This document shows positions 1 through 38,643 of a stretch of 64,000 nt of DNA, piece by piece (position 1 is the first letter of the stretch; each line of letters starts with the position of its first letter). Source of the stretch: a virus. Location: positions 1 to 64,000 of IMG/VR virus record IMGVR_UViG_3300042398_001385. One strand, written 5' to 3'. A program made the translations under genes and the position numbers. The notes beneath the pieces were generated by a model. It was given only the letters and a program-made list of their open reading frames with translations, was not told where the DNA came from and searched no databases.

Positions 1-3000
1 TTCAAATTCATCTCTATAGAATTTTTCCTCCTTCCAAGACCATGCGTGAGATCCAAGCCAAGATTGTACTGATCCTATCTTATTACCCTCTTTAAATCTT
101 TCCTTTGGTATTTTTCCCAAGAAAGCATCTAGATTTCCTCCAGGCGGGGATAAAATAACATAAGGTGAAAATTCAGATTCACCTTCAAAATAACCAGTTA
201 TATAAATATTTTCTTCTTTATCCAAAACTAGATCAGCTCCTGAATCATTGTTAATACCTCCAGCTGTTACTATATCTACTAATAATCCATCCTTATTGAA
301 TTTAGTTAGATATATGTCCGTTCCTCCTCTTGATTCTATTTCCTCCGGAGAAAAATACGCTGGTGAAGTGTATGATCCCGTTATATAAACATTTTCATCG
401 GAATCACTTTCTATATCGTGAGCAGTATCACCTCCCGATCCACCGCACATTTTCATCCAAATTAATTTTCCAGTGGACAACAGTTTTATTACAAATATAT
501 CAGTTGTTCCAGGGAATGAAGATAATGTCTGGTTCTCTATTTTTATAGTTCCTTCATATGAACCACTAATTAATACATGCCCATTAGGATCTAAACATAT
601 TGATGAAGAACCAAAAGATGTGGAAGAATCGTATCCAATACTATTAGCCCATAAGCATTCCCCGTCTCCTGTATAGAATTTAGCTATAAACATATCAGGA
701 TTACCCACACCGGTTAATTGTATAGGTCCTAAATCTATCTGAGAATCAAATACTCCAGTTAAATAAAGGTATTCTTCTTTTAGTATTCCTATCTCATATG
801 CTTTAGAATACGTGGTATTCGTAAATTGCTTAGCCCAAACAAAAGTCATAGAAGGATCTAATTTAGCTAAGAATCCAGAATCTTGTCCGGTTGATATTAA
901 AGATGACGAGCCAAGGATTAGATTTCCTTGGAATCCTCCACATATATAAATATTTTCATACTTATCTACTTTAATATCACCTATGTATTGATCTGGTGTA
1001 ATAGGTATATTCAAAGAATTTAATAAAACCCCATCAAAATTAAACTTATCTATTTGTATAAATCCAGTAAGATTATTATCACTAACTACATATATGTTTC
1101 CATTCGTATCTGTTATAACAGATCTAGCATAGATAGGACCTTGAGGTGATGTTGATGCTATAGATCTAGCCCATTGTATAACTCCACCTTTATTATATTT
1201 AGCTATATAAACTCCTTGATCTAATGATGTTAGATATAGATCCTGAGTACCTATATTATTAACCTCACCCATGAATATAGTACCAGTAAAGTCTCCAATA
1301 GCTATTATGTCACCCTCGTTGTCTACTGTAACCTTGACACCTTGATCAGGATTGCTATTACCTAGTGTTATAACCCATTCGAAATTATCAAAAAGATCTC
1401 TAGATTTTTTCTTAGCTATTCTTTCTATTTGTGAGTTTTTCCAGTAAGGTTCTTTATTGGCTTTGTCGTTCAAAATATCTCTTAGGGGAGCGTATAAGAA
1501 GACATCGTCTATATTCAAAGATGGAAATTGGTATTTCAATCGATCGATGCTGTAACGCTGCCAAATAGGCTTATACCAAGAATATCTATCAACATTAGGC
1601 ATGATAGGCCTGGTGTAATCGGAGTTTAAAGTTATATTATCATAATAAGGACCAACTATAAAGTTAAAACCTAATTGTGATGTGCCTATACCAGAATCAA
1701 AAATATATTCTACTGACGGAAGAGGACTAGAAGTATTGTGATAAATAAAATCCCATCCATTAGTACCAGGATCCTTAGATGTCGCCTGTATATGAGGTAT
1801 TATATAATCAATTTTACCTATCTCTCCATCCTTTGTTAGAATTAAAAGATTTTTAGGGAAAGTTGTTTCTCCATTTTTAATAGTTTTCCATGGTGCGGAT
1901 AATGATATCTTACCAAAATTACAATCAACAGGATTTATAAGAGTAGTTCCATCATTTCTATATAAAACTTTAGTAAAATAGTATCCATCAAAATAATAAA
2001 GTTCTGTACTAGAAGGTGAAGAACTAGAATCTATAGTAAACCATATGTTACTGTTTCCTGTTTCTATTATGCTTTTTACGGAGCCTAAATTTAGTTCAGG
2101 ATTAGTAGCATTGTTCCAAACCGCCCATCTTATATCATCCCAATAAACTAAACCATCGGAAGTTCCTATCCATTTATGATTTAGCTTATCTAATTCAATA
2201 GAATAAACATTATTTGACGGAATACCTGAGTTACCCGTATTATAATTTTTGAAATTAACTCCATCAAATCTAGAAATTCCGTTATCTGTTGCTATCCATA
2301 AGTACCACTTGTTTATCGAGTAATATTGTAATTTAAGATCTCTTATATTATCGGAAGGTATATCAGAATTAGAAGTTGTATAAAGATTCCAAGATTTTGC
2401 ACTAGAATCATAGAAAAGTAATCCGTCATAAGAAGGCGAAGAGTTGCAAGTAAATCCTGCAAATATGTCTCCTCTCTGCGGATTTATTTCTATACAATTT
2501 ATACTAGAAGGTGTTATAGGAGATATTGGATTTCCTCCATTATCTACAAAATCATTAACAGAATATGCAAAACTATCTGATGGATCTTTCTCGTTTATTT
2601 TAACTAGAGGTACAAGATTGTTTTCTAATCCTATCCATTTTATATCATTTCTATCTATTTTTATACAATTAGTAAGAAGAGATACTCCAGGCATTACACT
2701 GTTACTTGAATCATAATTTGTGTAATTAACACCATCGAATTTTATGACATCCTCACCGGTTACCCATATATCACCATCAGCATCCCAAGCTATTCCTGTA
2801 GGTTCAAATAGTACAGGCGAATAAGTAGGAACTTTATAAAATTTAGATTGTATATTTTTAGGTCCTGGATTTGTACTAAGATCTGGAGATATGGGATTAG
2901 CGTTAGGATAAAAATTATTAGGAAGCTCTGAAAATCCTCTTACAACATAATCAAACCTTTTTATATTTTCGTCTATAGAATTGTTTAACTGATCCGCAGC

Positions 3001-6000
3001 TTCCTTAAGATCTAAATAATTATTTCCGGGAGAATCAGTCTCACCAAATACTAATCCATTAGAATCTTCAGTAACCTTAACCCTATCTCCATATTGTAAT
3101 GAATATAGATTAAACCCTCCTAGCCAATCATTATGATAATCGTACATATCCCAAGTATGGGCATAAGCTTTTTCGAAAGAAAAATCTTCAAAAGTTTCCC
3201 ACGATAAGCTTTTAGTTCCCCAATACCTCATTTCCTTCTTAGGTAATAAATTGAAGTCATAATAAACATACTCCTCCCTTTCATTTAATCCGCCAGAGAA
3301 GGTGTTAATTGGAGTAGTTATTAAAAGAGACCCAGTTGTCTGAACTATAAATTGTTTACCGTTCCAAAGACTTCCAGAATTATTAGGTGCTTGAACTGTA
3401 AAAGTTTTATAATTAGTAGTAACAGAATCCACTAAATTTATAACCTTATACTTAGGATCTAGCGGAGACGAATTAATTATACTATATGCTAAGCTAGTAG
3501 TTGAGTTTAAATCTCCTTGGAAATTACAGTCTGCTATTAAAACAGCATCAGCATAAAATTTAATATTACCTGTTCCATAAACATATCCTCCAGTTATTGC
3601 TGTTATAATAATCTCCGGTATTTGGAATGTGTTAGCTCCTGTTACTGTAATAGGATATTGACCTAATGAAGATCCTAAAGAATCATATATCCAAACAGTA
3701 TCCCCTGATGAATATCCATGAGGAGTTATTGTTGTAACTTCAGCTAAATCATATCCTCCACCAATATAGTTACTAACTATTGTTGATATGTCAATTTGTT
3801 GAACTCCGACATCAAACGTAACGGTAGATTTTACCTCTGGTAATTTGGTTAATACCTCACATTGCTGTCCCTCATTAAAATTATTAGAATACTCTGGGTA
3901 ATTCTGTATAAAATCAGATATGCTTAGTATTTTATTTGTGTTTTCTACTGGGAATATCCATTGTGAAGGATAGCTTTCCCATTTCAAAGGCATATTATTC
4001 CAATCATAACTTTCAGATTCCCTGAATCTAGTTAATGTATTTAATTCTATTCCTCTCTTATCTACTTTTACTACGCCCCTTTTTATACCTAATGATATAG
4101 AATTCAATGTATCCCAAACCCTACATTTTATATTATATTCACCAGAGTAAGGTAAGAAATGAACTATAGTTTCCAATTCTGGTAATCCTCCTCTTGTTTG
4201 ATAGTAGTAAGGCTTATCGTCATCGTCTTTATAAATAGTCCATTCTATCTCATAAAAATCTAAATAAGGTAATCTATTCCATGAATAGAATCCATTACTC
4301 TGTATAAAGTTCTCATAATAATCAAATACGTATGAACTGAATCCTAAATTAGTAGGACTCACTTTCCAATTTGAATATTCCCCGGATCCTCTAGTATAAA
4401 TCATTTGTATATAGAGGTTTCCTGTTAATGTATTATAGTCTCCAGCACTACAATATCCAAGAACTAAATTTCCTGGCGAATCTACTGACTCAACCCTTAC
4501 AAAAATAACATCTGGAAAAGTTGTGTCGAACCAATTATTTCCTGCGCCTATATTAATATTAATTCCCACAGGGAATGTGGTTGGCAAAGTAAATAATGAA
4601 GTGCTATAAACTGTTTGTAAGCTACCCCCAGGATTAGGAGATGTAGTGCTTGAATAGCTAGCTATTTGTAAGTCTGTTCTAGTTATTGTTGGATCTAAAG
4701 AGTTCCAGCTTCCACTCAATTCTTCCCAAGATAGATTAAAGGTATCATTTTTTATAATAACTGGACATCCAGCGGGAAAAACATAATCACTACCATCAGA
4801 GAAAAGTTTATATCCAGGAGGATCATAATCTCCGTCACCTAAAAATTTAGGCATTTCTCCATTTGTAATGTCCTGATAGAAAAGATTTACTGCATTTTCT
4901 AATGATGGTATAGTGGAGATAGGATATTCTTGAAAATATGAATAAGGATCTACTGTGTTTCCGTAATAGCTTATTCCCTCTTCTACTCCATTTATATTTG
5001 GATATAAAAGACCGCTCTGATTTGGTTTTGTATAGAAAGGTCTAAGATCTTCTACGTATCCTCTTTCGGGATAAACATTAAAACCTACTTTTATACCTCC
5101 TTTTATTTCAGTGATATCTACAACATCAGTCCATCCTCTTGTTTTATATAAATTAAAATATACACCCTCCCCTGTAATATCTATTATCCTAGCATTTAAG
5201 GGAAGGTAGTCTCTTTTAAGTCTTTGCTTTAATCCAAAAAGTTTTATTAGTACCTCTTCTGGACTAAAAGCAAAAGCATCTTCAACTATTGGATATCCGT
5301 ACTGATCCTCCTCCTGATCTTCTACTACTCTATTTATATCATAGAATAATCCAAATAAAGCAGTTTTCTTATAAGACTTGGACGGGAAAAGACTTTCGAA
5401 TTGTTTTTTTAAACCAAACGTACCGTCTTTTTTCTTACCGTATATTTCTACCTGCTTAAACTTTCCCTGGTTCTCATCCTTTATTAAACTACTTATTAGT
5501 TCCAATTTATTAAGTCCCTCTATATTAGGCTGACTTAATTGATTTAATATTTTTTGGTTTTGTTGTAGTGGGGTAAGGGTATCTGCTTCGTCAGTTTTTA
5601 TATTAAGCCAATATTCTTTAACTCTTAGATCATAATAACCAAAGAATTTTATAGCATTAAAAAGAGATTTATATGATCCTAAATAAGGGAAAATACTCTC
5701 TCCTGCTAATAAAAGCTCCTTTCTTTTTTTGTTTATTATTTCATAGTCAGGAAACTCTTCTTTTATATCACTTTCTCTTACTATTAAAGCATCATCTGGA
5801 TTAAAAGATCTTCCGAAATTGGAGAGAGTAACAGACAATCTGCTATCTTCTCCTTCAACCTCACCATGTAGTTCTACTTTTAATATAGTTACTGGATTAT
5901 TAGGATCTGTATAATCCTCTATTATTAATCTCCTATCATATATTCCTTCGCTATCAGAATTTAAAGCTATGTTTATCTGCATAGAAGATGGACTGATATC

Positions 6001-6408
6001 ACTACTAACAACCAATCCGCTAGGAGATGCTACAACGTCACCAGGAACTATCTCTGGGTAAAATTCTACGTTATTCGCTTTAACTAATACAGGAGCATCA
6101 AGATTTCCATCCACTCCCAATTCATATGTGTATATGATAGAAGAAACATTAGTACTTCCATCATAATCTGATTCCCATCTTGTTCTCCATACAGAAGGAC
6201 CCGGACTAACACCGTATGAGTGTGGAAAACCATATTTTATTTCAGATAGAGGGTTTAGAAATTTTTCTATTATAAATATATGTTGGACCTCAAAAAGCTT
6301 TTCAGAAACAATAGGGAAAAGTATTGCACCCTCCCAATAATTACCATTCCATACAAAATTATATTGATCACCTTTTTTATCAAAAAATAAAAGATTTTGA
6401 AAATTCAT
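1..6408 (-). CDS. Very large (>2136 aa, runs off window start) baseplate/tail protein: N-terminal baseplate-wedge-like region plus beta-propeller repeats
   Basis: Absent from the ORF track, apparently because it has no stop inside the window. ATG at 6408 (MNFQNLLFFDKKGDQYNFVWNG...). The same frame was spot-checked open at ~2160 (PSNNVYSIELDKLNHKWIGT, regulator-propeller-type repeat), ~200 (GADLVLDKEENIYITGYFEG, SBBP-type repeat) and position 1. Lies downstream of the gp6-like gene. Confidence 0.8.
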   Translation of the reverse strand, partial: MNFQNLLFFDKKGDQYNFVWNGNYWEGAILFPIVSEKLFEVQHIFIIEKFLNPLSEIKYGFPHSYGVSPGPSVWRTRWESDYDGSTNVSSIIYTYELGVDGNLDAPVLVKANNVEFYPEIVPGDVVASPSGLVVSSDISPSSMQINIALNSDSEGIYDRRLIIEDYTDPNNPVTILKVELHGEVEGEDSRLSVTLSNFGRSFNPDDALIVRESDIKEEFPDYEIINKKRKELLLAGESIFPYLGSYKSLFNAIKFFGYYDLRVKEYWLNIKTDEADTLTPLQQNQKILNQLSQPNIEGLNKLELISSLIKDENQGKFKQVEIYGKKKDGTFGLKKQFESLFPSKSYKKTALFGLFYDINRVVEDQEEDQYGYPIVEDAFAFSPEEVLIKLFGLKQRLKRDYLPLNARIIDITGEGVYFNLYKTRGWTDVVDITEIKGGIKVGFNVYPERGYVEDLRPFYTKPNQSGLLYPNINGVEEGISYYGNTVDPYSYFQEYPISTIPSLENAVNLFYQDITNGEMPKFLGDGDYDPPGYKLFSDGSDYVFPAGCPVIIKNDTFNLSWEELSGSWNSLDPTITRTDLQIASYSSTTSPNPGGSLQTVYSTSLFTLPTTFPVGININIGAGNNWFDTTFPDVIFVRVESVDSPGNLVLGYCSAGDYNTLTGNLYIQMIYTRGSGEYSNWKVSPTNLGFSSYVFDYYENFIQSNGFYSWNRLPYLDFYEIEWTIYKDDDDKPYYYQTRGGLPELETIVHFLPYSGEYNIKCRVWDTLNSISLGIKRGVVKVDKRGIELNTLTRFRESESYDWNNMPLKWESYPSQWIFPVENTNKILSISDFIQNYPEYSNNFNEGQQCEVLTKLPEVKSTVTFDVGVQQIDISTIVSNYIGGGYDLAEVTTITPHGYSSGDTVWIYDSLGSSLGQYPITVTGANTFQIPEIIITAITGGYVYGTGNIKFYADAVLIADCNFQGDLNSTTSLAYSIINSSPLDPKYKVINLVDSVTTNYKTFTVQAPNNSGSLWNGKQFIVQTTGSLLITTPINTFSGGLNEREEYVYYDFNLLPKKEMRYWGTKSLSWETFEDFSFEKAYAHTWDMYDYHNDWLGGFNLYSLQYGDRVKVTEDSNGLVFGETDSPGNNYLDLKEAADQLNNSIDENIKRFDYVVRGFSELPNNFYPNANPISPDLSTNPGPKNIQSKFYKVPTYSPVLFEPTGIAWDADGDIWVTGEDVIKFDGVNYTNYDSSNSVMPGVSLLTNCIKIDRNDIKWIGLENNLVPLVKINEKDPSDSFAYSVNDFVDNGGNPISPITPSSINCIEINPQRGDIFAGFTCNSSPSYDGLLFYDSSAKSWNLYTTSNSDIPSDNIRDLKLQYYSINKWYLWIATDNGISRFDGVNFKNYNTGNSGIPSNNVYSIELDKLNHKWIGTSDGLVYWDDIRWAVWNNATNPELNLGSVKSIIETGNSNIWFTIDSSSSPSSTELYYFDGYYFTKVLYRNDGTTLINPVDCNFGKISLSAPWKTIKNGETTFPKNLLILTKDGEIGKIDYIIPHIQATSKDPGTNGWDFIYHNTSSPLPSVEYIFDSGIGTSQLGFNFIVGPYYDNITLNSDYTRPIMPNVDRYSWYKPIWQRYSIDRLKYQFPSLNIDDVFLYAPLRDILNDKANKEPYWKNSQIERIAKKKSRDLFDNFEWVITLGNSNPDQGVKVTVDNEGDIIAIGDFTGTIFMGEVNNIGTQDLYLTSLDQGVYIAKYNKGGVIQWARSIASTSPQGPIYARSVITDTNGNIYVVSDNNLTGFIQIDKFNFDGVLLNSLNIPITPDQYIGDIKVDKYENIYICGGFQGNLILGSSSLISTGQDSGFLAKLDPSMTFVWAKQFTNTTYSKAYEIGILKEEYLYLTGVFDSQIDLGPIQLTGVGNPDMFIAKFYTGDGECLWANSIGYDSSTSFGSSSICLDPNGHVLISGSYEGTIKIENQTLSSFPGTTDIFVIKLLSTGKLIWMKMCGGSGGDTAHDIESDSDENVYITGSYTSPAYFSPEEIESRGGTDIYLTKFNKDGLLVDIVTAGGINNDSGADLVLDKEENIYITGYFEGESEFSPYVILSPPGGNLDAFLGKIPKERFKEGNKIGSVQSWLGSHAWSWKEEKFYRDEFE

Positions 6409-6656: not shown

Positions 6657-8354
6657 TTAATTTCCTGTATTTAAAGAACTTTTTAATATGCTATTTACTT
6701 TTGAGTTATAAGTATTAGGTACTATAGATCTAATATCTATGTTTATAGAAGAAAGGGTTGTCATACCAGCTCCTAGATCATAATAGATTCCATTCCTATC
6801 TTCCCATCCCCCTGATATTATAACTATCTCATCTTTTCCTATAACTATATCGCCAAATTCATCAAATCCTATCTCTGGTGAATTTGGACTTTGTGCTTTA
6901 GCTGCTTCGTTTTCTTCTCCTACAAAATATAAAGAAACAGAATCCACTCCTTTTATCTCCTCCACTGCTGCAATTAAATCAGATCTAGGTATCTTATCCC
7001 TTCTTCTTATATTTAAGAAATAGTCACTCATAGTATTTACTATCTGTGATTTTATGGTATCGGGATCATTACCTTCAAATATAGTAATAGCTATGTTTAT
7101 TACATATTTTTTTATTACCGGATCTAGTATTTTAACCTCAGTTGTAACTATTTTCTGTCCGCTCTCGTCTAACAAAGCATAAATACTATTTCTTTGTGCA
7201 TTAGTTAATTTAAATCTTGATACTGGTATATCAAAATATGTTTCATTACTTTTTAGTGTTATCTGTATATCAGGAACTAAGATAAGGTATATTATATTGT
7301 CGTCATCTATGTATTGATCATCAAAAGTCGTAAATGCTTCTATTATAGAAAACTGTCCAAATTTTTCAAAATAAGTTATGTAATTAGTTGGATTGGCCAA
7401 GACAAAACTTCTTGAAGTTTTAGGTGCTATTAATCTAGTTAAATCTATAGATTCTTGATTAGCTCCTAATTGTGGAATAACTGTACAGCTAACACTTAAA
7501 ACTTCAGAAAGAGTTACACCATTACCAAAAAGATCTGTACCCTCCGAATCGAAATTAAATATTATCTGTGAAGAATCCTCTACTATAATATTTCCACTAG
7601 ATCCAGCAGATTCTAAATAATTTACTTGTATAATAGAACCAGGTGCTGGAGGAAGACCAAAATTTGTATTACCGAAGAAAATGTCTATACCAGATATTAT
7701 AGAGCTTCTGACCATATATCCTCTACCATTTCTAGGTATGTCGTATAAAGATTCGTATCTTTTCCACTCCACCCCGTTTATTTTTACATCAACCTCAAAG
7801 TTTTCTATCCCAGAAGTACCTCTGGAAGATATATTAAAGCTCTGTAAAATATCTCCAGATCCAGTATATTGATTAGTACTTATCGTTCCTTCTATTATAG
7901 AACAAAGTAAATTGGAAGACCCATCTAAATTTAATCTAGTATATTCTTGTGGAAATTTCAATAGATATGTTTTTCCATTATTGACACATTTTATTTCAGA
8001 GTTTTTTGGAATTAAAACCGCTCCACCTCCTATATTTTCTGCACCCCTTCCATTCCATTTTATAAGTACCTCACCTTTTGCTGATATACTCCTCGTTGGA
8101 TTATGCCCAGCAAGAGTAGCAAGACCGTATACAGATGATTCTCTAGTTGCTGTATTAATATTTAATTCCGTTATGGAATCTTCAATAAAAAATAAAACAA
8201 ATTGTGAGAGATTGTCAAGTACAAATATTATCTGACCCCATACAGAAGCTACAGTAAATAATTGGTTAGACATCCCATATCTTGCCTGTATTAACTCAAA
8301 AGTTTGAGTTAGAAGGTCGGATATTTTAGCGTTACTTTTCGATAATAAATCCAT
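6657..8354 (-). CDS. Baseplate wedge protein, T4 gp6/baseplate J-like
   Basis: ELNINTATRESSVYGLATLAGHNP, IFFGNTNFGLPP, YLESAGSSGN and ESIDLTRLIAP resemble gp6-family motifs; follows the gp25-like gene. Confidence 0.8.
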   Translation of the reverse strand: MDLLSKSNAKISDLLTQTFELIQARYGMSNQLFTVASVWGQIIFVLDNLSQFVLFFIEDSITELNINTATRESSVYGLATLAGHNPTRSISAKGEVLIKWNGRGAENIGGGAVLIPKNSEIKCVNNGKTYLLKFPQEYTRLNLDGSSNLLCSIIEGTISTNQYTGSGDILQSFNISSRGTSGIENFEVDVKINGVEWKRYESLYDIPRNGRGYMVRSSIISGIDIFFGNTNFGLPPAPGSIIQVNYLESAGSSGNIIVEDSSQIIFNFDSEGTDLFGNGVTLSEVLSVSCTVIPQLGANQESIDLTRLIAPKTSRSFVLANPTNYITYFEKFGQFSIIEAFTTFDDQYIDDDNIIYLILVPDIQITLKSNETYFDIPVSRFKLTNAQRNSIYALLDESGQKIVTTEVKILDPVIKKYVINIAITIFEGNDPDTIKSQIVNTMSDYFLNIRRRDKIPRSDLIAAVEEIKGVDSVSLYFVGEENEAAKAQSPNSPEIGFDEFGDIVIGKDEIVIISGGWEDRNGIYYDLGAGMTTLSSINIDIRSIVPNTYNSKVNSILKSSLNTGN

Positions 8355-8356
8355 AT

Positions 8357-8728
8357 TTATAATATTTTAATTCCTAATATAGGATTACCCTTTATTGCAA
8401 AATCTATTACACAGGCATCTCTTGTTTCTCCTCTTAAAAATCCTATTGTGTATTTCACGTCGAAAATACTAAAGGCCATAGGAACATATGTGGCTAAGTG
8501 AATATCTATTGCTCTTGATAGAGTTGATTCATCAACCTCAAGATCAAATATTAATCCTTCTAGATCTATACCAAAATAAGGATCTCCTAAAACCTCCCCC
8601 GGCCTCGACAGCATACAATTTTTAATCATCCCTATCAAGATTTCCACATCATCATTAGTGTGAAGAAACCCTTCCTTATAATTAGGATCTTGAGGTCCCC
8701 TTGGATAAATTTCACTTAATCTTCCCAT
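8357..8728 (-). CDS. Baseplate protein gp25-like (GPW/gp25 family)
   Basis: IKNCMLSRPGEVLGDPYFGIDLEGLIF matches the gp25 signature; 123 aa. Confidence 0.8.
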   Translation of the reverse strand: MGRLSEIYPRGPQDPNYKEGFLHTNDDVEILIGMIKNCMLSRPGEVLGDPYFGIDLEGLIFDLEVDESTLSRAIDIHLATYVPMAFSIFDVKYTIGFLRGETRDACVIDFAIKGNPILGIKIL

Positions 8729-8735
8729 GTTGATC

Positions 8736-8743
8736 TATATATT
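8736..8743 (-). promoter_or_regulatory. Late-promoter motif variant (AATATATA)
   Basis: One-mismatch copy of GATATATA, 7 nt upstream of the gp25-like ATG. Confidence 0.5.
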
Positions 8744-8836
8744 CCAATAAAAAAATACCCACTTATTTTACCGGATTTTATTATTTAATATTATAGACTG
8801 AAAATGGAAAATATATTCTACAGAATATTATTTTTT

Positions 8837-9616
8837 TTAATTCCACTGTAAGAAGTATGAAGGGGTGTTCTCGTCTTTTATCATCTGAATTATTTCAGTT
8901 TTTTCAGTTGATCCTATAGTTTGGATATTATTATAGTTAACTCTAACACCACCAGGAAGATTATATTCAAAAGTACCTAACAATCTACCTATATTTATTT
9001 TAGCTTCAGCTAAGCAGAACCTTACAAATAATTCATCATCATATAAGCTTTCTTCTGGTATATCTATATAAGCCCTTATTCCCACATCAGTTCCGCTGTA
9101 TAATGAGCTTGAGCTACCGCCATCTGTTTGATATGTTCTATTAGGATCTCTACCGTTTATAGTTAGTTTTTTTGTGTTTTTGTTATAGTTAAAAGCATAA
9201 GTTTCTAATAAATATGCCTTTGCTAAATCGAAGAAAGAATATAAAACAGTTCTATACACTAAATTATCCCCTGCAAAAGGAGATAACATAAGTTCCGACC
9301 CTAGTAGTTTAGAATCACCAAAATCTTTATCAGGGGTTCCTATCAATCCAGCTCCGTTTACTTCTCTAACCTCGTAAATGGATCTAACACATTGAGGAAG
9401 CTGTATTTGTCTAGTAGCTCTAAATGATGGCGTTGAGAATAATTCTCTTCCTAATACAAATATTCTATCCTCTACAGCATATTGATAATTATCATAAAAA
9501 TAAGCCCTAGCTCTTTTTATTATCCTCTTAATTTCCTGCTCGTTTAGATTATAAGGCAAAGCACAAGAATGAGATATGTCATCCTTTATTTCTTGGATTA
9601 AGTCTGCTTCGGTCAT
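8837..9616 (-). CDS. Neck/head-completion protein, T4 gp13-like
   Basis: N-terminal LNEQEIKRIIKRA and C-terminal AEAKINIGRLLGTFEYNLPGGVRVNY, similar to the gp13 LPGGV motif. Confidence 0.7.
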   Translation of the reverse strand: MTEADLIQEIKDDISHSCALPYNLNEQEIKRIIKRARAYFYDNYQYAVEDRIFVLGRELFSTPSFRATRQIQLPQCVRSIYEVREVNGAGLIGTPDKDFGDSKLLGSELMLSPFAGDNLVYRTVLYSFFDLAKAYLLETYAFNYNKNTKKLTINGRDPNRTYQTDGGSSSSLYSGTDVGIRAYIDIPEESLYDDELFVRFCLAEAKINIGRLLGTFEYNLPGGVRVNYNNIQTIGSTEKTEIIQMIKDENTPSYFLQWN

Positions 9617-9621
9617 ATCTA

Positions 9622-11064
9622 TTAATTATTTGATTTAAAGTTTACCCCAGGTATTCCTGAAGGTTTAGAATTATTATCAGAAAATCTAGCTGGAGTAGAA
9701 GGTGAATCCCCTTCGTTTCTATTAGGGAAAGGTCTTTTCTTAGAACTTCCTTTTAATTTTTTATCGTCGTCTCCATCTTTAACTATTTCTGTCTCAGGGG
9801 ATATAGTAGCAAGCTTACCTATAAATCCTGATCTAATTATTCCACCGAAAACCTCACAATTAATTTCCTTGTCTTTATTATCTATATAGCTATCATGGAC
9901 AGTATTAGTAAAATAAAGATCCGAAGTCATAATCTTAGATCTACTTATTTCATTATTGGTTATTAAATCGCAATCTTCTAGAGTTGAATCGTTTATTTTG
10001 CAAGTAAACAATCTACAATTAAATATATTTCCTGCTATTTCTCCTTCTAATATATCATAATCCTTTAAAAGGTAGGCTCTAGTTGTTTTTATATCTTTTA
10101 GCTGGAATTTACCTAAAGAACTATCATAATTAATTATTCCTTCTTTTATGCTATTCTCAACTATTAGATCGTAAAGTACTTCCCTTATATTTAGGAAAAA
10201 AGATCTAAGTATTTGTGGATCAGATCTTAAATCCACCATTATATTCATGTGTGGATAATTCTTCTGGAAAGCGTCCGGATCTATAAATGTAGATGAGTTT
10301 TTGTATATCTCATTAAGGAACATTTTAAGAGTCTTAAGATCGTTATCAGTAAATCCTGTATTGAATTGTAGTACTCCAACAGTATAGGTAATTATATAGT
10401 CTATTATTTCCTTAATAGCAGAATATCTTTTCTGGTAATCTTTTCCACCAAGATATCTAACCTCGAAATATCCTTCAGGAAGTTTTAAGAAATTTATCCC
10501 CATATTTTTTTCAAGAGGAACTTCAAATAGATTCTTATCAATAAATCCAATATTACTAGGATCTACGAACTTATTTGATGGAATAATTCTTTTTATAGAT
10601 TTAGCATATAAAGATCCCATTCTATCAGGGAATCTTTTATAGATAACATTCTCATCAAATCCAAGAATAAATTTAAGAATATTTAGTTCCGTCATTTTAG
10701 GAACTTCAGGATATATTGATGTGTCTATGCTAACACCAAACTGAAAAGCACACTTCTTATCCGTATACCCATTCTCATCTATCCATTTTAAGGTTTTTAT
10801 TAAAATAACTATAGCCTCGAAATAAGGAAGAGGACCCGTGATGAATTCTACCATCTTGGATCCTCCTGAATAATCCGGCTCTAATTTAAAAATATCCTTG
10901 TTTGGTTTAAAATTAGAATGATACTTATTAAAAAGAAGTATTTTCTTTCCTAATACCTTTCCTAGGCCCTCGCATATTTCATTCCTATTTAAGTTACTAT
11001 AAAACTCAAATTCGAAACCAAGCTTAACTGAGTAGAAAAAATCATTAGTAAGTAGATTAGCCAA
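9622..11064 (-). CDS. Putative amidoligase (COOH-NH2 ligase type 2) with C-terminal beta-solenoid-like region
   Basis: LGFEFEF, LEPDYSG, EFITGPL and FEVRYLGG motifs; the usual HxH is replaced by CAFQFG. Confidence 0.65.
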   Translation of the reverse strand: MANLLTNDFFYSVKLGFEFEFYSNLNRNEICEGLGKVLGKKILLFNKYHSNFKPNKDIFKLEPDYSGGSKMVEFITGPLPYFEAIVILIKTLKWIDENGYTDKKCAFQFGVSIDTSIYPEVPKMTELNILKFILGFDENVIYKRFPDRMGSLYAKSIKRIIPSNKFVDPSNIGFIDKNLFEVPLEKNMGINFLKLPEGYFEVRYLGGKDYQKRYSAIKEIIDYIITYTVGVLQFNTGFTDNDLKTLKMFLNEIYKNSSTFIDPDAFQKNYPHMNIMVDLRSDPQILRSFFLNIREVLYDLIVENSIKEGIINYDSSLGKFQLKDIKTTRAYLLKDYDILEGEIAGNIFNCRLFTCKINDSTLEDCDLITNNEISRSKIMTSDLYFTNTVHDSYIDNKDKEINCEVFGGIIRSGFIGKLATISPETEIVKDGDDDKKLKGSSKKRPFPNRNEGDSPSTPARFSDNNSKPSGIPGVNFKSNN

Positions 11065-11067
11065 TTT

Positions 11068-12177
11068 TTATTTCTCTATTAATTGTATTTTAAGTGTGGA
11101 AATATCCACGCTTAAGATCGAAAAATCAACCGATTCTCCAACCTCGTATTCTTTAATAGAGTTTACTAATTTTTCTTTTTCGATAAGACCACTTAGACCA
11201 TTTTCCATCTTTATGAAAATACCGAAAGTTTTAATTTTAGTAACCTCTCCTTTATATATTTTCAAATCGGTATTTTCCCCCAAAACTTCAGAAGAAGTAT
11301 CCTTCATTTCTTGGATATTTTTCATCTTCTCGTTTGGTTGGGTAACTGATAAATTTATTCTTTGTGGATTTTTAATATCCATTACATAAAATTCGATGCT
11401 ATCACCAGCTTTATATTTTTCTAGATTTCCTCTGCTTGTATCGTCCATAGGTATGATTCCTGTATAGATATCATCCCATTCTACAAATACTCCATTACCT
11501 GATAGTCCTGTAACATTACCTTGATATTTATTAGAGAAGGAAAGATCTTGAACTGCACGATCTATAATTTTTCTTAAATATTTCTTAAATGATACAACAA
11601 AAATATCTCTTTTCTGATCGTAGACTTCAACCATTACGTTTAGTTCTTTACCTACATAATCTGCAAAATTCATAATTCTGTTTGCTGCAGCTAGACTTCC
11701 AGGAAGGAAACATTCAATTCCAGATAGATCAACCATGAATCCTCCGTTACAAACATTCTTAACTTTAACCTTGAAAGCGCAGTCCTCTTCTTTTATTGAT
11801 CTATGTAATTCTCTTTTAAGTGCTTTTTCATATCCAGCAGAAACAGATCCATTGAAAGATCCAGAAGAATCCTTAGTTATCACAACATCTAATACGTGAC
11901 CTGGATTCATCTCTATAGAAGGATATCCAAGCTTTCTCATATTCTTTTCTTCCTTCTTCGTGTCTATTACAATAGTTTGACCAAAAGTGGTCTCTCCTAA
12001 AGCTATTCCTTTATCAGGATCAACAGATGTTACTGTAATTTTTTCTACTGAATTGTTTTGTAAATCTTTACCCGATATTTTCGCTGAGTCGTCAGGAAAT
12101 GTATTTCCGTAAAGTGAAGCTAGTTTTTCCCTTTCTTCTGTGTCATATTCGAAAAAACTAAAATTTTTATTTTTCAT
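11068..12177 (-). CDS. rpsA: Ribosomal protein S1-like multi-S1-domain RNA-binding protein
   Basis: About four tandem S1/OB domains, e.g. NGGFMVDLSGIECFLPGSL (bS1 domain 2-like) and GEVTKIKTFGIFIKMENGLSGLI; 369 aa. Confidence 0.75.
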   Translation of the reverse strand: MKNKNFSFFEYDTEEREKLASLYGNTFPDDSAKISGKDLQNNSVEKITVTSVDPDKGIALGETTFGQTIVIDTKKEEKNMRKLGYPSIEMNPGHVLDVVITKDSSGSFNGSVSAGYEKALKRELHRSIKEEDCAFKVKVKNVCNGGFMVDLSGIECFLPGSLAAANRIMNFADYVGKELNVMVEVYDQKRDIFVVSFKKYLRKIIDRAVQDLSFSNKYQGNVTGLSGNGVFVEWDDIYTGIIPMDDTSRGNLEKYKAGDSIEFYVMDIKNPQRINLSVTQPNEKMKNIQEMKDTSSEVLGENTDLKIYKGEVTKIKTFGIFIKMENGLSGLIEKEKLVNSIKEYEVGESVDFSILSVDISTLKIQLIEK

Positions 12178-12197
12178 GTTATTTGGGTTTGTATTGG

Positions 12198-12226
12198 TTT
12201 ATACTATAAAATTGGATTAAAATTTC
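12198..12226 (-). promoter_or_regulatory. Putative GAAA-N19-TATAAA promoter for the S1/amidoligase genes
   Basis: Intergenic GAAA-ttttaatccaattttatag-TATAAA; same spacing as three other sites. Confidence 0.55.
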
Positions 12227-12233
12227 CAAGAAA

Positions 12234-15200
12234 TTAATATTTTTTCAAATTAAAAGCTTTTTTTAATTCGGATGGCAATTCGGGGATAGGATACACAGGA
12301 TCTGCAGAGCCTAAGAAAAATTTAAACAATCCTGAAACATCAGCTGCGCTTCTTAAGAATTCATCTATATAAACAACATAATAAGTGTTTCTTAAGCTCA
12401 TTCTTCTCCAAGCAGGATGATCGTCGCTCATTATTATAGGATTTAAAATGTTTAATAAGTTTCTTCCTAATAGTACAGCTAATGGCCAAGGTATTTTTGA
12501 AAGTAGTTCTGCAGAAGCAGAAACCTTAGGGAATACTAATTTATCTCCTAGTGGAGTTTTAGGTAAACTTTTATAATATTCCCAGAATAAGCTATATACT
12601 ATTCTAGCAGGAGGAGGAGCACCTAACCCTATTAGAGCCTGCTCTATCATATCAGTTGGTCTAGCAGGGGGAAATACTGGAATGTTTAAAATATTTAAGA
12701 ATGCTGGAACTTCAGGAGATTCTGGATTTACTAGATCCAATACTAAATTTTTAGACATCTTTTGAATATCCTCAGGATTAAGATTTAAAAATTTAGGTGA
12801 ATCAACATCTTTTATTTCAGGCATAGCTGCTTCCAATGAACCATTATCTAGACTTTTTATTAAAGCCTCTATTAGAAACGATTTTATTTTAGATCCTGGT
12901 ATAGTTACTTGTATAATTCCGCCAAGGCCTGGGGTTTGTGTTAGTTGATCTTGCTTAAGTGGAAAAACCGTAGGCATTTCAAAAGCAGCAACAGCATTAC
13001 CAAATCCTCCGTTAAGAGCGCTTAAACATGAAAGTGGTCCTTTAGGATACGGAAAATTAGAAATTAAAGGATCTTCCTCATCTAGTGGTCTAACTGGATC
13101 AAAAGGACCTATTCTGCTAAGTCCAAGTTTTTTAGAAACCAATTTCTTTAAATCTTTTACTCTTATAACCAATATAGGATTTTCTCCTTCATATCTAACA
13201 TATCTAGAAAAATCTTCTTTCCTATATTCTATTGTAGAAAGACCCTCCATTATTCTAAATTTAATAGCCTCTATAATAGGATTTTTCTTTCTTAAAAATT
13301 TTAATGTTCTAGGTGCAGAATTCGTTATCTTTATCTCTGGAAATTTAAAAATTCCTTCAAATTCACTACTTTCAACTATTGAAAATGCACCATCCCTTAC
13401 TTTTTTAATAACAGAGAATCTATTACCCCATAAAATTATCTTGGTTATTATTAAAGACGCACCTCTTATCAGTTTAACAAGATCATTAAATTCGTCATCT
13501 GACATAAGTCTAGGATCCTTATCTCTTCTTAGGAATATCTTACTTGAATTAGCAACTTCAAAATTTTCTAAGAAATATTTAGGAGGACAAACTATTTTCA
13601 TAAGTTTAAGTACCTCTCTCATCTCATCTTTAAAGTTTATAAAGTTGGGGCAGTCTATAGGAACTAAACTTGCTTTCATCTCCTTTAATATTCTAAGAGA
13701 TCTTATTATACCAGGTATATCAATTTTTAATTTATCCTTATCCTTAGGAAAGTATATAGATTTAGGATCTGGTATACTTTTATCTAGATAGTTTTTTATT
13801 ACAGTTTTTAATGATTCCTTCCTTTGATTTACTAAAAGATCTAGCTGTTTTTTTTCTTCCGTTAAATCCGGCTTAGGAATATCAAGCAATGCGCTCTTGT
13901 TTTTATAATCCCTCTCTTTATCTCTTATTGATTTTTTAAGTTCTCTTTCCTTTTGTTGTTGTTCTCTAATTTTCTGTATATCTCCAGGAGGAGGAACGCT
14001 ATCAAATATTTTTGATAAATTAGTCCTTATCCCTTCTAAAACCCTTTGTTTAGAATCCTGATTATCTAATCCAAATCCAGGAAGAGGTATCAATTTATCA
14101 GGTATACCAAAAGATATAGCTTGCTTAATTTTTTCAAAAGGATCTTTTATAACAGGATCAGATTTTCTAGGAATAAATCTAGGTCCTCTTAATCCTGTAA
14201 GGAAAAGAGAACTCCCTGTTAAAAACTCTTTTATATAGACAAGCGGGGTTGGCATAAACCCTCCTATAAAAGGAATGAATATAACCAGCAATCCCAAATT
14301 AAAAGGAAGGGGTATTAATATAGGAGGTACTATAGTCCATATCATAGGAAGCGGTATCCTTATATAAGGATTTCCGTCTATAGGATTAGGAAAAGGTATA
14401 GGTATAAAAGATGGCGGAAGATATCCCACGGGCCAATATTTTAATCCCAATCTTACTGAAGGACCCTGGGATAAAAAGTATTTAGTATCTTCAATTGGAG
14501 GCAGACCGTTAGGGTATGGCAAAAGACCAACTTTTGTTACATCCTTACAAAATTGTTTCCACCAACACCTTTGAAAAATGGTTGGACAATCAGAGCTAGG
14601 AGGGGATGATAATAAATAATTTTTTGTTTTAAAATCAGAACCAGGCTCGCCACAACAAATAGGGGGACAATTCTCAGGATCATCCTCGTCTGGCTCATTA
14701 TTTACTCCTGCACATTTAACATCCGAAAATCTTTTTTTAACATTCTCAGGGCTTACAGAATCGTTTATCTCACTAACCTTTTGTGAAGCAAGAAGCATAG
14801 TATCCCTTATCTGCTCGTACTTATTTTTTACATCTAAATAATTTTCATATATTCTAATACCTATTACATCAGAAGCAGGTAGTGTTTTTGCTAATCCCTC
14901 TCCAGCCTTTATTGCTTTATCTCTTATATCTTTTATAGCAGGGTCTATATACTTCGATTTGCTTTGTCTATATTTTTCATCCCATTTAGGTTTAAAATTA
15001 CTATAGAAATCTGTAAAAACTGGTGTTGGCTCTCCGTCTTGTGTGAAACTTGAGGGTCTGTTTTTTGAAGGATCCCTAGCATCATTATCTCCTCTTTCTT
15101 CTGCAGTAAAGAAAAGCCAATTAGAAGAAGATTTTTCTATGAGTTGCCCGTATAATATTCCTCTATCATCTACTATTTTATCTATTATAGATTGCTTAGA

Positions 15201-17324
15201 GTCATTTGTTTTAATTATTTTTTCTATAAAATCATAGAACTTAGCAACATCAGGAAATCCTGTCTTTATATTGTTTATCTTTATATACTGATATGATGTT
15301 AAATAGTCAGCTTTAGTACCTCCTAATATTCCTCCATTGCCAGAATACTCATTTCCTATTTTTATTTTTTCAGCATCAGGTTCATCTACCTCGGATAAAG
15401 GTTCAGCAGATGATCCAGAGAAAGTAATCTTTCCCGGTTTTTTAACTTTTTTATAAGGTAAAGGAAAGCCGTAATCAGATACGAACGATAGCTCAAATTG
15501 TAATTCACTTAGTGACTTTACGAATTTAGTTTGGTATCTTATTGAGAATTTTTTTAATGCTTCTAAAAAATCGTACCCATAGGAATCGTATGCGTAAGAA
15601 AGACCAGTAGCTAGATTTTGTGCACTGCTTTTAAATACTCTTTCGTTTATATCTAGTGATGAATTTCCTTGACCATATAAATCAGTTGTTGCTGTATTGG
15701 TTGGAATAAAAGATTTTTCAACATCTCCTATAGTAACAGGAGCTTGCTTTCTTTCTTCTAGAGTAGAAATAGAGGCATTTAATAAATCCTCAGTTTCTTT
15801 TATTTTATTTTCTAATATTCCTATAAAATTCCTTTCTATAATTATTATTCTTATATCCTCTACATTTTCCTTAAATTTTATTATCCCTTCGGAAACTGGC
15901 CAAGATGCAGTTGACTCTTCGTAAGTTATAGGAGATTTGTTGGCATTTATTTGATTATTAAAAAGAATCTCTAAATCTGGATCGCTTAATTCTGTATCAT
16001 AAACGTTCAATAAAAAAAGATCTTCAGTAAATATATTGTTGTTCTCTAAGAAGATCTTTTTGTCGTTACTATATTTAGTATTCTGATCTATTAATTCTTT
16101 CTTATACGCTTTTATTTGATCGTTATAAGTTAATATTTCGATCCCTAAACCAAAATCGCTAGGATCGCCACCATCATTTTTAGGAACTCTAGCAATCCAA
16201 TTCTCATATAAAGATTTCTGATATTCGTATATCCCCTCATAATGATATAAAATTTCCTCTAGGCCTCTTTCTAAATTTTGCCATCTAGCTAATAATTTTA
16301 TGTCCTCCTCAAGCTTTTTACTTTTATCTAGAGCTGATGATATACAAGAATCTATTGCATTAACATCTACAGGGGATGGTACTGGATCTGGTAAAGTTTC
16401 TCTATTGAATTCGTATGTTGGTGGATCACAAAATTCGTCTAATATATCTTCGAATGAAGACTTAGTTAATATAGGATCTCCAGTTATAGGATCTTCTGGC
16501 ACTCCGGGTAAACAATCATCATCTATAATTGGATCATCACCATCAGGAAAAAAATTAGCATCAAATCCGTCTATTCTTTCAGAGCTTGAATTTTCAACTC
16601 CATCACAAGGATTAGTATTTGCATTCTGGTCTTTTAATAACCCGTTTATTTTTTCTAATGCTCCATCTATGCTTAGATCGTCTCCTCCTATCTTTACATG
16701 GACTATTTGCGTTTTATTCATTATAAATTCTAGGGGTATATCAAAACCTAGAACTTTCATTTTTCTTTTCTTTCTTGAACCGGAGTTAGAAGGTTTTCCT
16801 AAGATTAGAGGATCTATATTATCAAATATTTTTTCATTTATTTTTTCTAATAAATCCTGGTTTTTTCCTTTCAGATATTTAGTTATTCCTGATGAAGGTA
16901 TTTTTTTAGAAAAACCGAGATCCCTATTTCCTACACTTACTCCTAGATCCTTTTCTGTTACAGATATATTTTTCTTATACTCATCAGAATTTACAAGCTC
17001 ATCGTATAATTTTTTATCCTCTTTTTTTATAGATTCTAAAATGATTCTACTATATAAATCGTCTCCCTCATATTTACAAGATAGGTCCTCTATTTTTTTT
17101 AATGATATAGGAGGACCTTGAGGTTTTAAGCTATCTATTATGTTATCTACTTCCTTTTGGCTTTTTTCTAATTCCTTATTAAATCCCTCTTTAGATTGTA
17201 AATCCTCATAAGGTATATTAAAATCTTGTCCACCTGATATTATATTTAATATCTCATCAGTAGACATTTGAGAAAAATCCTTCCCTAATAATTCATCTAT
17301 TCTAGATCCTATTTCCTCTGCCAT
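12234..17324 (-). CDS. Large hypothetical protein (1696 aa), probably virion/baseplate-associated
   Basis: Long ORF 1 nt downstream of the gp5-like gene; coiled-coil, Cys-rich and Pro-rich hydrophobic segments. Confidence 0.75.
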   Translation of the reverse strand: MAEEIGSRIDELLGKDFSQMSTDEILNIISGGQDFNIPYEDLQSKEGFNKELEKSQKEVDNIIDSLKPQGPPISLKKIEDLSCKYEGDDLYSRIILESIKKEDKKLYDELVNSDEYKKNISVTEKDLGVSVGNRDLGFSKKIPSSGITKYLKGKNQDLLEKINEKIFDNIDPLILGKPSNSGSRKKRKMKVLGFDIPLEFIMNKTQIVHVKIGGDDLSIDGALEKINGLLKDQNANTNPCDGVENSSSERIDGFDANFFPDGDDPIIDDDCLPGVPEDPITGDPILTKSSFEDILDEFCDPPTYEFNRETLPDPVPSPVDVNAIDSCISSALDKSKKLEEDIKLLARWQNLERGLEEILYHYEGIYEYQKSLYENWIARVPKNDGGDPSDFGLGIEILTYNDQIKAYKKELIDQNTKYSNDKKIFLENNNIFTEDLFLLNVYDTELSDPDLEILFNNQINANKSPITYEESTASWPVSEGIIKFKENVEDIRIIIIERNFIGILENKIKETEDLLNASISTLEERKQAPVTIGDVEKSFIPTNTATTDLYGQGNSSLDINERVFKSSAQNLATGLSYAYDSYGYDFLEALKKFSIRYQTKFVKSLSELQFELSFVSDYGFPLPYKKVKKPGKITFSGSSAEPLSEVDEPDAEKIKIGNEYSGNGGILGGTKADYLTSYQYIKINNIKTGFPDVAKFYDFIEKIIKTNDSKQSIIDKIVDDRGILYGQLIEKSSSNWLFFTAEERGDNDARDPSKNRPSSFTQDGEPTPVFTDFYSNFKPKWDEKYRQSKSKYIDPAIKDIRDKAIKAGEGLAKTLPASDVIGIRIYENYLDVKNKYEQIRDTMLLASQKVSEINDSVSPENVKKRFSDVKCAGVNNEPDEDDPENCPPICCGEPGSDFKTKNYLLSSPPSSDCPTIFQRCWWKQFCKDVTKVGLLPYPNGLPPIEDTKYFLSQGPSVRLGLKYWPVGYLPPSFIPIPFPNPIDGNPYIRIPLPMIWTIVPPILIPLPFNLGLLVIFIPFIGGFMPTPLVYIKEFLTGSSLFLTGLRGPRFIPRKSDPVIKDPFEKIKQAISFGIPDKLIPLPGFGLDNQDSKQRVLEGIRTNLSKIFDSVPPPGDIQKIREQQQKERELKKSIRDKERDYKNKSALLDIPKPDLTEEKKQLDLLVNQRKESLKTVIKNYLDKSIPDPKSIYFPKDKDKLKIDIPGIIRSLRILKEMKASLVPIDCPNFINFKDEMREVLKLMKIVCPPKYFLENFEVANSSKIFLRRDKDPRLMSDDEFNDLVKLIRGASLIITKIILWGNRFSVIKKVRDGAFSIVESSEFEGIFKFPEIKITNSAPRTLKFLRKKNPIIEAIKFRIMEGLSTIEYRKEDFSRYVRYEGENPILVIRVKDLKKLVSKKLGLSRIGPFDPVRPLDEEDPLISNFPYPKGPLSCLSALNGGFGNAVAAFEMPTVFPLKQDQLTQTPGLGGIIQVTIPGSKIKSFLIEALIKSLDNGSLEAAMPEIKDVDSPKFLNLNPEDIQKMSKNLVLDLVNPESPEVPAFLNILNIPVFPPARPTDMIEQALIGLGAPPPARIVYSLFWEYYKSLPKTPLGDKLVFPKVSASAELLSKIPWPLAVLLGRNLLNILNPIIMSDDHPAWRRMSLRNTYYVVYIDEFLRSAADVSGLFKFFLGSADPVYPIPELPSELKKAFNLKKY

Positions 17325-17325
17325 A

Positions 17326-18252
17326 CTAAACTCCTGTTATTCCTGTAGCTCCAGTAGGTCCTGTAGCAGATCCTGTTACACCTGCTCCTGTTACACCCGC
17401 TCCTGTCGGATTAGGTATACCTACCGGAGAATCATTATTTATTGGAACAACAGGAAAATCTGGGGAATTTTCTCTTGTTACTCTAACAGTCTGACTTGTA
17501 GCAAGCTGTTCAAAGCTAGATGCTAAAGTTGAATTAACCCCTGGGGTAGCTGGAAGTTTACTGTCTATAGATATTGCTAATTTTTTAAGGAAGTCCCAAA
17601 GAGGTTCTGCACATACAGCAGAGAACAAAGGAGAATGGCCCAAGTTGGTTGTTTTTCCGTCCATCCAAACTTCTTCAGAACTATGTTTAATTCTTGTTAT
17701 AGCAGTATTCTCTATTTCTTGATCAGCATACTTAGTTATCTTTCCACCTTTTAATTCTATAGATGATGTGTCATCAGCATGAGATATTAGTATAGAGTTA
17801 TCATTTCTTATTATAATTTTAGATTCTTTTAAATCTATTACAAGACCTTTCTCTACGGTATAATACATTTTAAGTCTCTCTATCCCATCATAAATAATAG
17901 AATGAGCTCCATCATAACTAGCACTTATCTCTTCAATTAAATCTGGAGCAAGTTCCTGTACAGCTTTGTATTCTGGACTATAATAATTACCATTATTAAA
18001 TTGAACGTGAACTACCGATCCTAATTTAGGAACAGACATTCTACCAGATCCTCCTCCTAATCCATAACTCTGTTCAAATCTTTGATGTGCCCAAGGAAGA
18101 TCCTCGTCTAGTATATCTGGATCAAAAACACCAAAGACTCTAATCTTAGCTCTACCTTTGAATTCCGGATCCTTGTTATCTACAACAACACCTAAATAAT
18201 GAGAGATCTCAATATTAGGTCTTTCTAATTTATTTCTGTCTACTAATCCCAT
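17326..18252 (-). CDS. Baseplate central spike, gp5/VgrG-like OB-fold protein (no lysozyme domain)
   Basis: YLGVVVDNKDPEFKGRAKIRVFG...LPWA...VPKLGSVVHVQF is the gp5 N-terminal OB signature; Gly-X-Thr tail. Confidence 0.8.
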   Translation of the reverse strand: MGLVDRNKLERPNIEISHYLGVVVDNKDPEFKGRAKIRVFGVFDPDILDEDLPWAHQRFEQSYGLGGGSGRMSVPKLGSVVHVQFNNGNYYSPEYKAVQELAPDLIEEISASYDGAHSIIYDGIERLKMYYTVEKGLVIDLKESKIIIRNDNSILISHADDTSSIELKGGKITKYADQEIENTAITRIKHSSEEVWMDGKTTNLGHSPLFSAVCAEPLWDFLKKLAISIDSKLPATPGVNSTLASSFEQLATSQTVRVTRENSPDFPVVPINNDSPVGIPNPTGAGVTGAGVTGSATGPTGATGITGV

Positions 18253-18274
18253 TTTTAATTATATAAGGATTACC

Positions 18275-31469: not shown

Positions 31470-31470
31470 T

Positions 31471-35773: not shown

Positions 35774-35775
35774 AA

Positions 35776-38640: not shown

Positions 38641-38643
38641 ATT

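Follow-up and report, generated by a model that had tools for sequence, protein, structure and literature searches.

A bS1 homologue encoded among the baseplate and neck genes of a large freshwater phage, with a predicted docking site on ribosomal protein uS2

Why does a phage carry what looks like a ribosomal protein gene in the midst of its virion genes, and does the product act on the host ribosome? The question is raised by an open reading frame of 369 codons within a 64,000-nt stretch of DNA (here, the window) taken from a 153-kb IMG/VR virus record, which has a G+C content of 32.5% and an estimated completeness of 53%. A sequence-only reading of the window had described the ORF, without giving its strand, as an S1 homologue of about four domains inside a baseplate/neck cluster and had suggested that it replaces or supplements host bS1 to favor phage mRNAs. 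The ORF is real and lies on the minus strand. The general idea of an rpS1 in huge phages is already published, as Al-Shayeb et al. (2020, Nature, PMC7162821) reported a "possible rpS1" in huge phages in whose genomes Shine-Dalgarno (SD) sites are rare and suggested that it acts in initiation, whether on the ribosome or off it; Mizuno et al. (2019) had left S1 out as ambiguous. Al-Shayeb et al. did not analyze domains or docking, and it is at this level that the protein is considered here.

The record probably represents a large uncultured freshwater phage with a host in the Bacteroidota, an assignment that fits both the relatives of its capsid protein and its SD-less gene starts. These capsid relatives come from Lak (Prevotella), Tenacibaculum, Chryseobacterium, Flavobacterium, and Sphingomonas phages and from the huge phages of Al-Shayeb et al., and all are Bacteroidota phages except the Sphingomonas phage records. 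No bS21 gene was found in the 153-kb record, which covers about half (53%) of the estimated genome.

The placement of the S1 gene in a baseplate/neck cluster is borne out by its flanks, which encode wedge/J-like, gp13/Ad2-like neck, and gp5/gp27-like hub proteins (Table 1), and in relatives PF26809 and PF04965 are found at the corresponding positions of the module. The same gene order, namely, hub, 1,696-aa protein, S1, 480-aa protein, gp13-like, gp25-like, wedge, and giant protein, is present in 79 of 79 IMG/VR loci and holds down to 47% identity between the S1 proteins. S1 is a fixed core gene in these related viral loci, and its rate of divergence resembles that of its structural neighbors.

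Table 1. Positions in the window of the S1 gene and its parts, of neighboring genes, and of other features named in the text (aa, residues of the S1 protein; AF2, AlphaFold2)
Feature	Position	Strand	Remarks
S1 gene	11068..12177	minus	ATG start; 369 aa
Codons 6-26, aromatic stretch and helix	12100..12162	minus	Aligns with NNYTDQERDALVNDYTATLP of Flavobacteriales bS1; predicted uS2-contacting helix
Aromatic stretch	aa 5-11
Helix	aa 13-26
Domain 1 (D1)	aa 43-111		OB domain in AF2 model, 43-111
Linker helix	aa 112-130
Domain 2 (D2)	aa 131-200; 11578..11787	minus	OB domain in AF2 model, 135-196; most conserved part; carries GGFMVDLSGIECFLPGSLAAANRI...FVVSFKKYL
Domain 3 (D3)	aa 217-278		OB domain in AF2 model, 217-277
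Domain 4 (D4)	aa 307-369		OB domain in AF2 model, 308-368
Spacer upstream of S1 gene	12178..12233	minus	56 nt
Conserved element GAAAT-N16-AGTATAAA	12198-12226	minus	In the 56-nt spacer; GAAA-N19-TATAAA at the same positions
Amidoligase-like gene	9622..11064	minus	~480 aa; TTG start 3 nt past S1 stop
gp13/Ad2-like neck protein	8837..9616	minus	PF26809 found on homologues in relatives
gp25-size protein			Among virion-gene neighbors of S1
Baseplate wedge/J-like protein	6657-8354
Giant protein	1-6408	minus	>2,136 aa; match to SBBP beta-propeller repeat
1,696-aa protein	12234..17324	minus	Unknown family; directly upstream of S1
Baseplate hub, gp5/gp27-like	17326..18252	minus	With OB domain
~20 overlapping co-oriented genes	26864-42335	minus	190-430 aa; between baseplate and head modules
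RimK-type ATP-grasp ligase	46097-47617	plus	PF08443, 129 bits; Zn_protease-like C-terminal part
Glutamine amidotransferase and asparagine-synthase protein	47594-49009	minus	Convergent with RimK-type gene
GATATATA boxes	26043, 52241, 54429, 58403, 61822	minus
GATATATA box	44186	plus

Two giant proteins, neither assigned to a family, flank the module that contains S1. The 1,696-aa protein diverges fastest, with 33% identity where S1 keeps 47%, and it adjoins S1 in most loci, including that on L149, a contig of a 208-kb relative. Farther along the window, the baseplate and head modules are separated by a long run of overlapping genes in one orientation.

Assignment of the protein to bS1 is based on sequence, profile, and fold searches, all of which rank bS1 best. 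Three stretches match Pfam S1 (74 bits against a cutoff of 22), and in NCBIfam the protein matches rpsA models best, collinearly across residues 88 to 366, with scores that miss the rpsA cutoffs by a wide margin (95.5 bits versus 524 for NF004952 and 92.9 versus 577 for TIGR00717). All 12 of the 12 matches in a PDB sequence search are bS1, with residues 87 to 202 aligned to residues 59 to 175 of Escherichia coli bS1, that is, to the end of D1 and D2. An AlphaFold2 model built from an alignment of 22 family members (mean pLDDT of 82) contains the N-terminal helix followed by four OB domains, in agreement with the estimate of about four S1 domains. Comparison of structures with bS1, suggested at the outset as a check, returned ribosome-bound bS1 as the top Foldseek match (9gut_B, E = 6e-23); superposition of D1 and D2 on 8peg_Z gave a TM score of 0.64 and an rmsd of 3.8 Å, and 4q7j and 4r71 are also among the PDB and fold matches. 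PHROGs gave no informative family for the protein.

S1 domains are widespread, and the same searches bear on the idea that the gene encodes an S1 protein of the Tex, PNPase, RNase R, or CvfB type, or that it entered the contig as host contamination. CvfB (3go5) does appear in the fold search, at an E value of 1e-11, but with TM scores of only 0.16 to 0.21, against an E value of 6e-23 for the bS1 chains. The PNPase and RNase R models match a single domain only, and Pfam and NCBIfam searches detected no non-S1 domain of CvfB (winged helix), Tex (core), PNPase (PH), or RNase R (RNB). Contamination, for its part, is hard to reconcile with a gene that has phage structural genes on both sides in 79 viral contigs. 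We reject both ideas as scarcely credible on the basis of the NCBIfam, PDB, and fold searches and of this 79-locus context, and since bS1 rather than Tex, PNPase, or CvfB is the nearest match, the reading as a bS1 homologue stands: the S1 protein is a true homologue of bS1.

bS1 usually consists of six S1 domains, with four in some Firmicutes. To place the phage protein along this architecture, a Flavobacteriales bS1 of 631 aa (P0408; 843 bits versus a cutoff of 720 for NF004953, and 76% identical to a protein from a Flavobacteriales MAG) was used as the reference. The family profile aligns by hhalign over columns 10 to 368 with residues 65 to 409 of P0408 (probability of 99%, E = 3e-18), and the alignment takes in the N-terminal helix, where FEYDTEEREKLASLYGNTFP is paired with NNYTDQERDALVNDYTATLP. 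It stops at D4, and D5 and D6 are absent from the phage protein. From this alignment, together with the PDB, fold, and NCBIfam matches, the protein corresponds to the N-terminal helix and D1 to D4 of bS1 without D5 and D6. Like bS1, it is acidic (pI of 5.3). The motif that had been singled out as similar to bS1 domain 2, GGFMVDLSGIECFLPGSL, is located at residues 145 to 162 and aligns with GGFTVELNGIRAFLPGSL in D2 of E. coli bS1 and with GGMIVDVFGIECFLPGS in Flavobacteriales bS1, so that the D2 hallmark GIECFLPGS is identical in the phage and Bacteroidia proteins. Within the phage family, D2 has a mean pairwise identity of 77% and a minimum of 64%.

The resemblance to Bacteroidia bS1 (F. johnsoniae bS1 and P0408) therefore extends to a collinear N-terminal helix and D1 to D4, to an acidic character, and to the same predicted site on uS2. 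The differences lie in length, with 591 to 631 aa in Bacteroidia bS1 versus 369 aa in the phage protein, in an identity of only 27%, and in the long N-terminal extension of Bacteroidia bS1, which the phage protein does not have. In D3 and D4, residues F231, W234, R273, F318, F321, and K363 are invariant in the family and compatible with RNA binding; where S1 domains usually have a His on the RNA-binding face, D3 has Pro and D4 has Glu. Partial retention of these aromatic and basic residues also bears on the suggestion that the protein is an OB-fold component that serves in baseplate or neck structure or assembly and takes no part in RNA binding or translation. Only the gene neighborhood speaks for such a component, and that position varies among distant relatives, while collinearity with bS1 runs along the full length of the protein and includes the ribosome anchor. 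We consider this suggestion very improbable.

The N terminus of bS1 is known to serve in ribosome anchoring (PMC10123108, PMC13000457). E. coli bS1 contacts uS2 at Met6/Arg7, His18, Phe32, and Asn203-Asp205 through its N-terminal helix, loop 2, and Phe79 of D1 (PMC10123108), and in Flavobacterium johnsoniae, residues 4 to 40 of bS1 form a helix-loop-helix, including FLANFNWHNF, that was built into 30S density beside uS2 and uS8 (PMC13000457). The Bacteroidota bS1 sequences compared here share the pattern E-F-[ND]-W and, after it, Y-[ST]-x-x-E-R...L...Y. Among distant homologues from phages, F-[ND]-W and the second helix persist; in the window's own S1 family, the second helix is retained and the first motif, F-N-W, is degenerate. 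The helix before D1 (residues 13 to 26 in the AlphaFold2 model) is present, is aligned with the Flavobacteriales bS1 helix, and lies at the predicted uS2 interface. As judged from these sequence comparisons, the phage protein keeps the N-terminal helix and the D1-D2 unit that anchor bS1 to the 30S subunit.

Docking on uS2, likewise proposed as a check, was modeled with F. johnsoniae uS2 as a stand-in for that of the host and with residues 1 to 200 of our own family alignment. The predicted complex scores 0.67 against 0.00 for the best control, although similar complexes have been solved and the score may for this reason reflect likeness to them rather than binding. Of 80 solved complexes, 58 attain that mark, as do 2 of 110 mismatched pairs. 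Contacts agree between runs by at least 82%, and the pLDDT of the partner is 78. The model touches uS2 at residues 7-8, 16-20, 33-34, and 204-210, which coincide with the site occupied by E. coli bS1, and on the phage side it involves the helix and a loop with invariant E62, G66, and Q67. In E. coli bS1, Lys43 of loop 2 enters the zinc pocket of uS2, whereas the phage family has Gly-Gln there, and conservation is equal in the predicted interface and in the remainder of residues 1 to 130 (0.62 versus 0.62). The docking check places the helix and D1 on the bS1 site of uS2, with the qualification that this result may echo the solved bS1-uS2 structures. As the ribosome-docking end is kept, the phage S1 protein probably sits on host ribosomes.

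When these results are placed together, the explanation that we favor, with a probability of roughly 55%, is that the protein is a bS1 paralogue of a phage lineage that docks on the host 30S subunit and either supports SD-less initiation or retunes it during the production of virion proteins. It can be hypothesized that a bS1 paralogue cut down to the N-terminal anchor and D1 to D4 would be produced together with the virion genes and that its N-terminal helix and D1 would attach to uS2 on the host 30S subunit, at the side where mRNA exits, and that it could there take the place of exchangeable host bS1 or fill vacant sites. The highly conserved D2 would then lie in the cleft between head and platform, and D3 and D4 may bind single-stranded A/U-rich leaders. 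The effect would be to sustain or retune SD-less initiation during heavy synthesis of structural proteins, presumably late in infection. That host bS1 would be replaced or supplemented, as had been suggested, is plausible.

A preference for phage messages is a separate matter. The observation that gene starts in this phage have A-rich leaders without SD signals is upheld in the 153-kb record, in which a 4-mer SD core is found at positions -20 to -4 in only 13 of 151 called genes and A makes up 50 to 66% of positions -15 to -2. Bacteroidia mRNAs generally lack SD sequences as well and use upstream adenines (PMC6847099, PMC13000457), and bS1 has been postulated to be the reader of the adenines that stand in for the SD signal (PMC13000457). 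As host and phage messages share such leaders, the leaders provide no basis for the selection of phage mRNAs, and the claim that the protein favors them on this account is not sustained. A benefit to the phage through selectivity is left unexplained for the same reason.

The spacer upstream of the S1 gene had been described as holding its own GAAA-N19-TATAAA motif. This motif is present, but the pattern occurs 3 times in the window against 1.9 expected, and because 28 of 100 shuffles reach its count, it is not above chance; as a promoter class, it was rejected. A related element, GAAAT-N16-A[CG]TAnAA, is retained upstream of S1 in relatives whose protein identity is as low as 47%, whereas the remaining spacer drifts. 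In the genome, GAAAT-N15-17-A[CG]TAnAA occurs 5 times versus 3.6 expected, and none of the copies but that at S1 precedes a gene. The element is particular to the S1 locus and not a promoter box repeated genome-wide; its sequence conservation makes it a candidate promoter or regulatory site. That S1 has a promoter of its own is supported only in part. The spacer also contains a weak hairpin, TTGGA..TCCAA, followed by a T-run. Scans of positions 8000 to 18500 for sigma-70 promoters and terminators remained at shuffle level, the 93-nt leader folds no better than its shuffles (z = 0.21), and the T4-type TATAAATA is not enriched.

A different box, GATATATA, lies 9 to 21 nt upstream of the start codons of capsid-module genes and of many others, and S1 is without it. 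Its total of 12 is not above the 10.5 seen in shuffles, and it is the placement relative to start codons that is striking. The box is a candidate late promoter that would give very short leaders.

How old the gene is in phages can be approached from its distribution. The S1 protein has 443 relatives in 90% clusters, on contigs of up to 320 kb, and 50% clustering leaves 154 representatives with E < 1e-30, nearly all of 340 to 450 aa. S1 genes of four-domain size are also found in Lak megaphages and in the 462- to 735-kb phages of Al-Shayeb et al. (2020). The "possible rpS1" proteins of these huge phages (LR756500-LR756504, LR745206) and the S1-like proteins of Lak are the best phage matches, at 25 to 35% identity, and belong to the same length class, with ORFs of 363 to 388 aa in LR745206 and LR756501 and of 369 aa in Lak-B2. 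The huge phages have related capsids and likewise SD-poor genomes. The family of the window differs from theirs in forming a separate, tightly syntenic subgroup of freshwater phages of ~290 kb, and the largest phages carry S1 away from the baseplate and amidoligase genes, unlike the window.

In a quick maximum-likelihood tree, 48 short S1 proteins are split from 27 cellular bS1 proteins with an SH-aLRT support of 100 and a branch of ~1.5 substitutions per site, and the phage clade falls outside the sampled Bacteroidota bS1. The cellular sample is without Firmicutes, Proteobacteria, Cyanobacteria, and Actinobacteria, and with a reduced set under LG+G4, a tree uniting phage S1 and Bacteroidota bS1 is not rejected (p-AU of 0.557). 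A word-based search for long relatives yielded only 11, so the closest cellular relative is weakly sampled. Within this sampling, the long, fully supported branch and the lack of nesting in Bacteroidota point to an old phage lineage rather than a recent capture. The window's S1, placed in such a phage-only clade among virion genes, differs in this respect from the recently acquired bS1 of the jumbo cyanophage PhiMa05, which groups with a Vampirovibrio-like donor and adjoins other ribosomal protein genes (PMC13157829). Public records assign close homologues of the S1 protein (P0026) and of the amidoligase-like protein (P0288) to a "Spirochaetia bacterium" MAG; their contig, of 6.7 kb, probably belongs to a phage and was binned with a bacterial genome.

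The fixed position in the baseplate/neck module at 79 loci, together with a rate of divergence like that of its structural neighbors, could also be read as the mark of a protein that is made late, packaged in the virion, and delivered with the DNA, possibly with the amidoligase-like protein, so as to act on host ribosomes at the very start of the next infection. The same idea has been raised for phage bS21 encoded in structural modules (PMC9723584). The phage S1 protein, however, has no similarity to any virion protein family in PHROGs and Foldseek searches, and some lineages have S1 beside replication genes or far from baseplate genes. One such exception (P0202) has S1 between a homologue of the 1,696-aa protein and ribonucleotide reductase/gp32. 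We regard packaging as distinctly unlikely. On the L149 contig (8283-11966), S1 is directly followed by the gene for the ribonucleotide reductase large subunit, which has an intein carrying a LAGLIDADG endonuclease, and genes for gp32-like and 5'-3' exonuclease proteins come after it.

Phage bS21 is also a useful comparison for the favored docking paralogue. Chen et al. (2022; PMC9723584) found it in freshwater Bacteroidetes phages and proposed that it substitutes into host ribosomes late. Phage bS21 belongs to the small subunit and acts in initiation, and its gene, like that of S1, is on the reverse strand among the structural genes of large lake phages. The proteins themselves differ, and for bS21 expression data exist.

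The gene that follows S1 encodes a 480-aa protein that combines a glutamine-synthetase-fold domain similar to Amidoligase_2 with a beta-helix of the pentapeptide type and a basic, disordered tail. A homologue with 33% identity to it (E = 2e-75) scores above the Pfam Amidoligase_2 cutoff (27.6 bits versus 22). In its model (pLDDT of 85), the N-terminal part matches the folds of glutamine synthetase and gamma-glutamylcysteine ligase and the C-terminal part matches pentapeptide-repeat proteins, and residues E18, E20, E62, E73, E201, and R203 are invariant in the family. The protein is widespread in phages, with 772 relatives.

This neighbor could be the partner if the S1 protein instead binds RNA as a free cofactor away from the ribosome, its bS1-type D1-D2 module being bound to a phage enzyme. 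Such a role, left open by Al-Shayeb et al. (2020) in the words "on or off the ribosome," has precedents, as D1-D2 of bS1 is a known protein-docking module (4q7j, 4r71; the RegB, Q-beta, and lambda beta cases, PMC13157829) and host S1 partners Q-beta replicase and T4 RegB (PMC13157829). D2 is by far the most conserved part of the phage protein. S1 is followed by the amidoligase-like gene in five of six sampled subclades, often with overlapping ends, and both genes are present in all six of the 462- to 735-kb phages matched. The order S1, amidoligase-like, gp13, gp25, and wedge is kept in other subclades (P0271, P0136, and P0149), and S1 is likewise paired with the amidoligase-like gene at P0223 and probably at P0178. 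The linkage has limits, however. The two genes are unlinked in 634- to 735-kb phages and in L149: in LR745206 (634 kb), the amidoligase-like gene lies by the hub genes and S1 is ~200 kb away, and the genes are also apart in LR756501, LR756502, and LR756504. Lak phages with an S1 gene gave no amidoligase match, and the phage S1 protein retains N-terminal anchor elements that are specific to docking on the ribosome. We judge this role unlikely, if worth keeping in mind.

It could further be speculated that both proteins form a joint phage module that remodels the platform of the Bacteroidia 30S subunit, with S1 docking by its N terminus and either guiding the amidoligase-like enzyme to ribosomal or mRNA-channel proteins or being itself modified. 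We see this as a long shot, but if true, the module would yield ribosomes specialized for the phage, either late in infection or as soon as the particle has been delivered. Beyond the amidoligase-like gene, the virion genes of the window include a RimK-type ligase and an amidotransferase/asparagine-synthase protein, which makes three amide-bond-forming enzymes among them. The substrate of RimK is ribosomal protein bS6, which is part of the Bacteroidia anti-SD pocket.

In conclusion, the value of this analysis is in corroboration and detail rather than in discovery. It adds to the published idea a controlled uS2 model, the link to the N-terminal anchor of F. johnsoniae bS1, and an account of how widely S1 and the amidoligase-like gene are linked and where that linkage ends. 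A phage lineage with genomes from ~290 kb to 735 kb holds a minimal bS1, consisting of the anchor and D1 to D4, as a core gene. Such a natural minimal bS1 may help to reveal which parts of bS1 are needed by ribosomes blind to SD signals and whether phages build specialized ribosomes.
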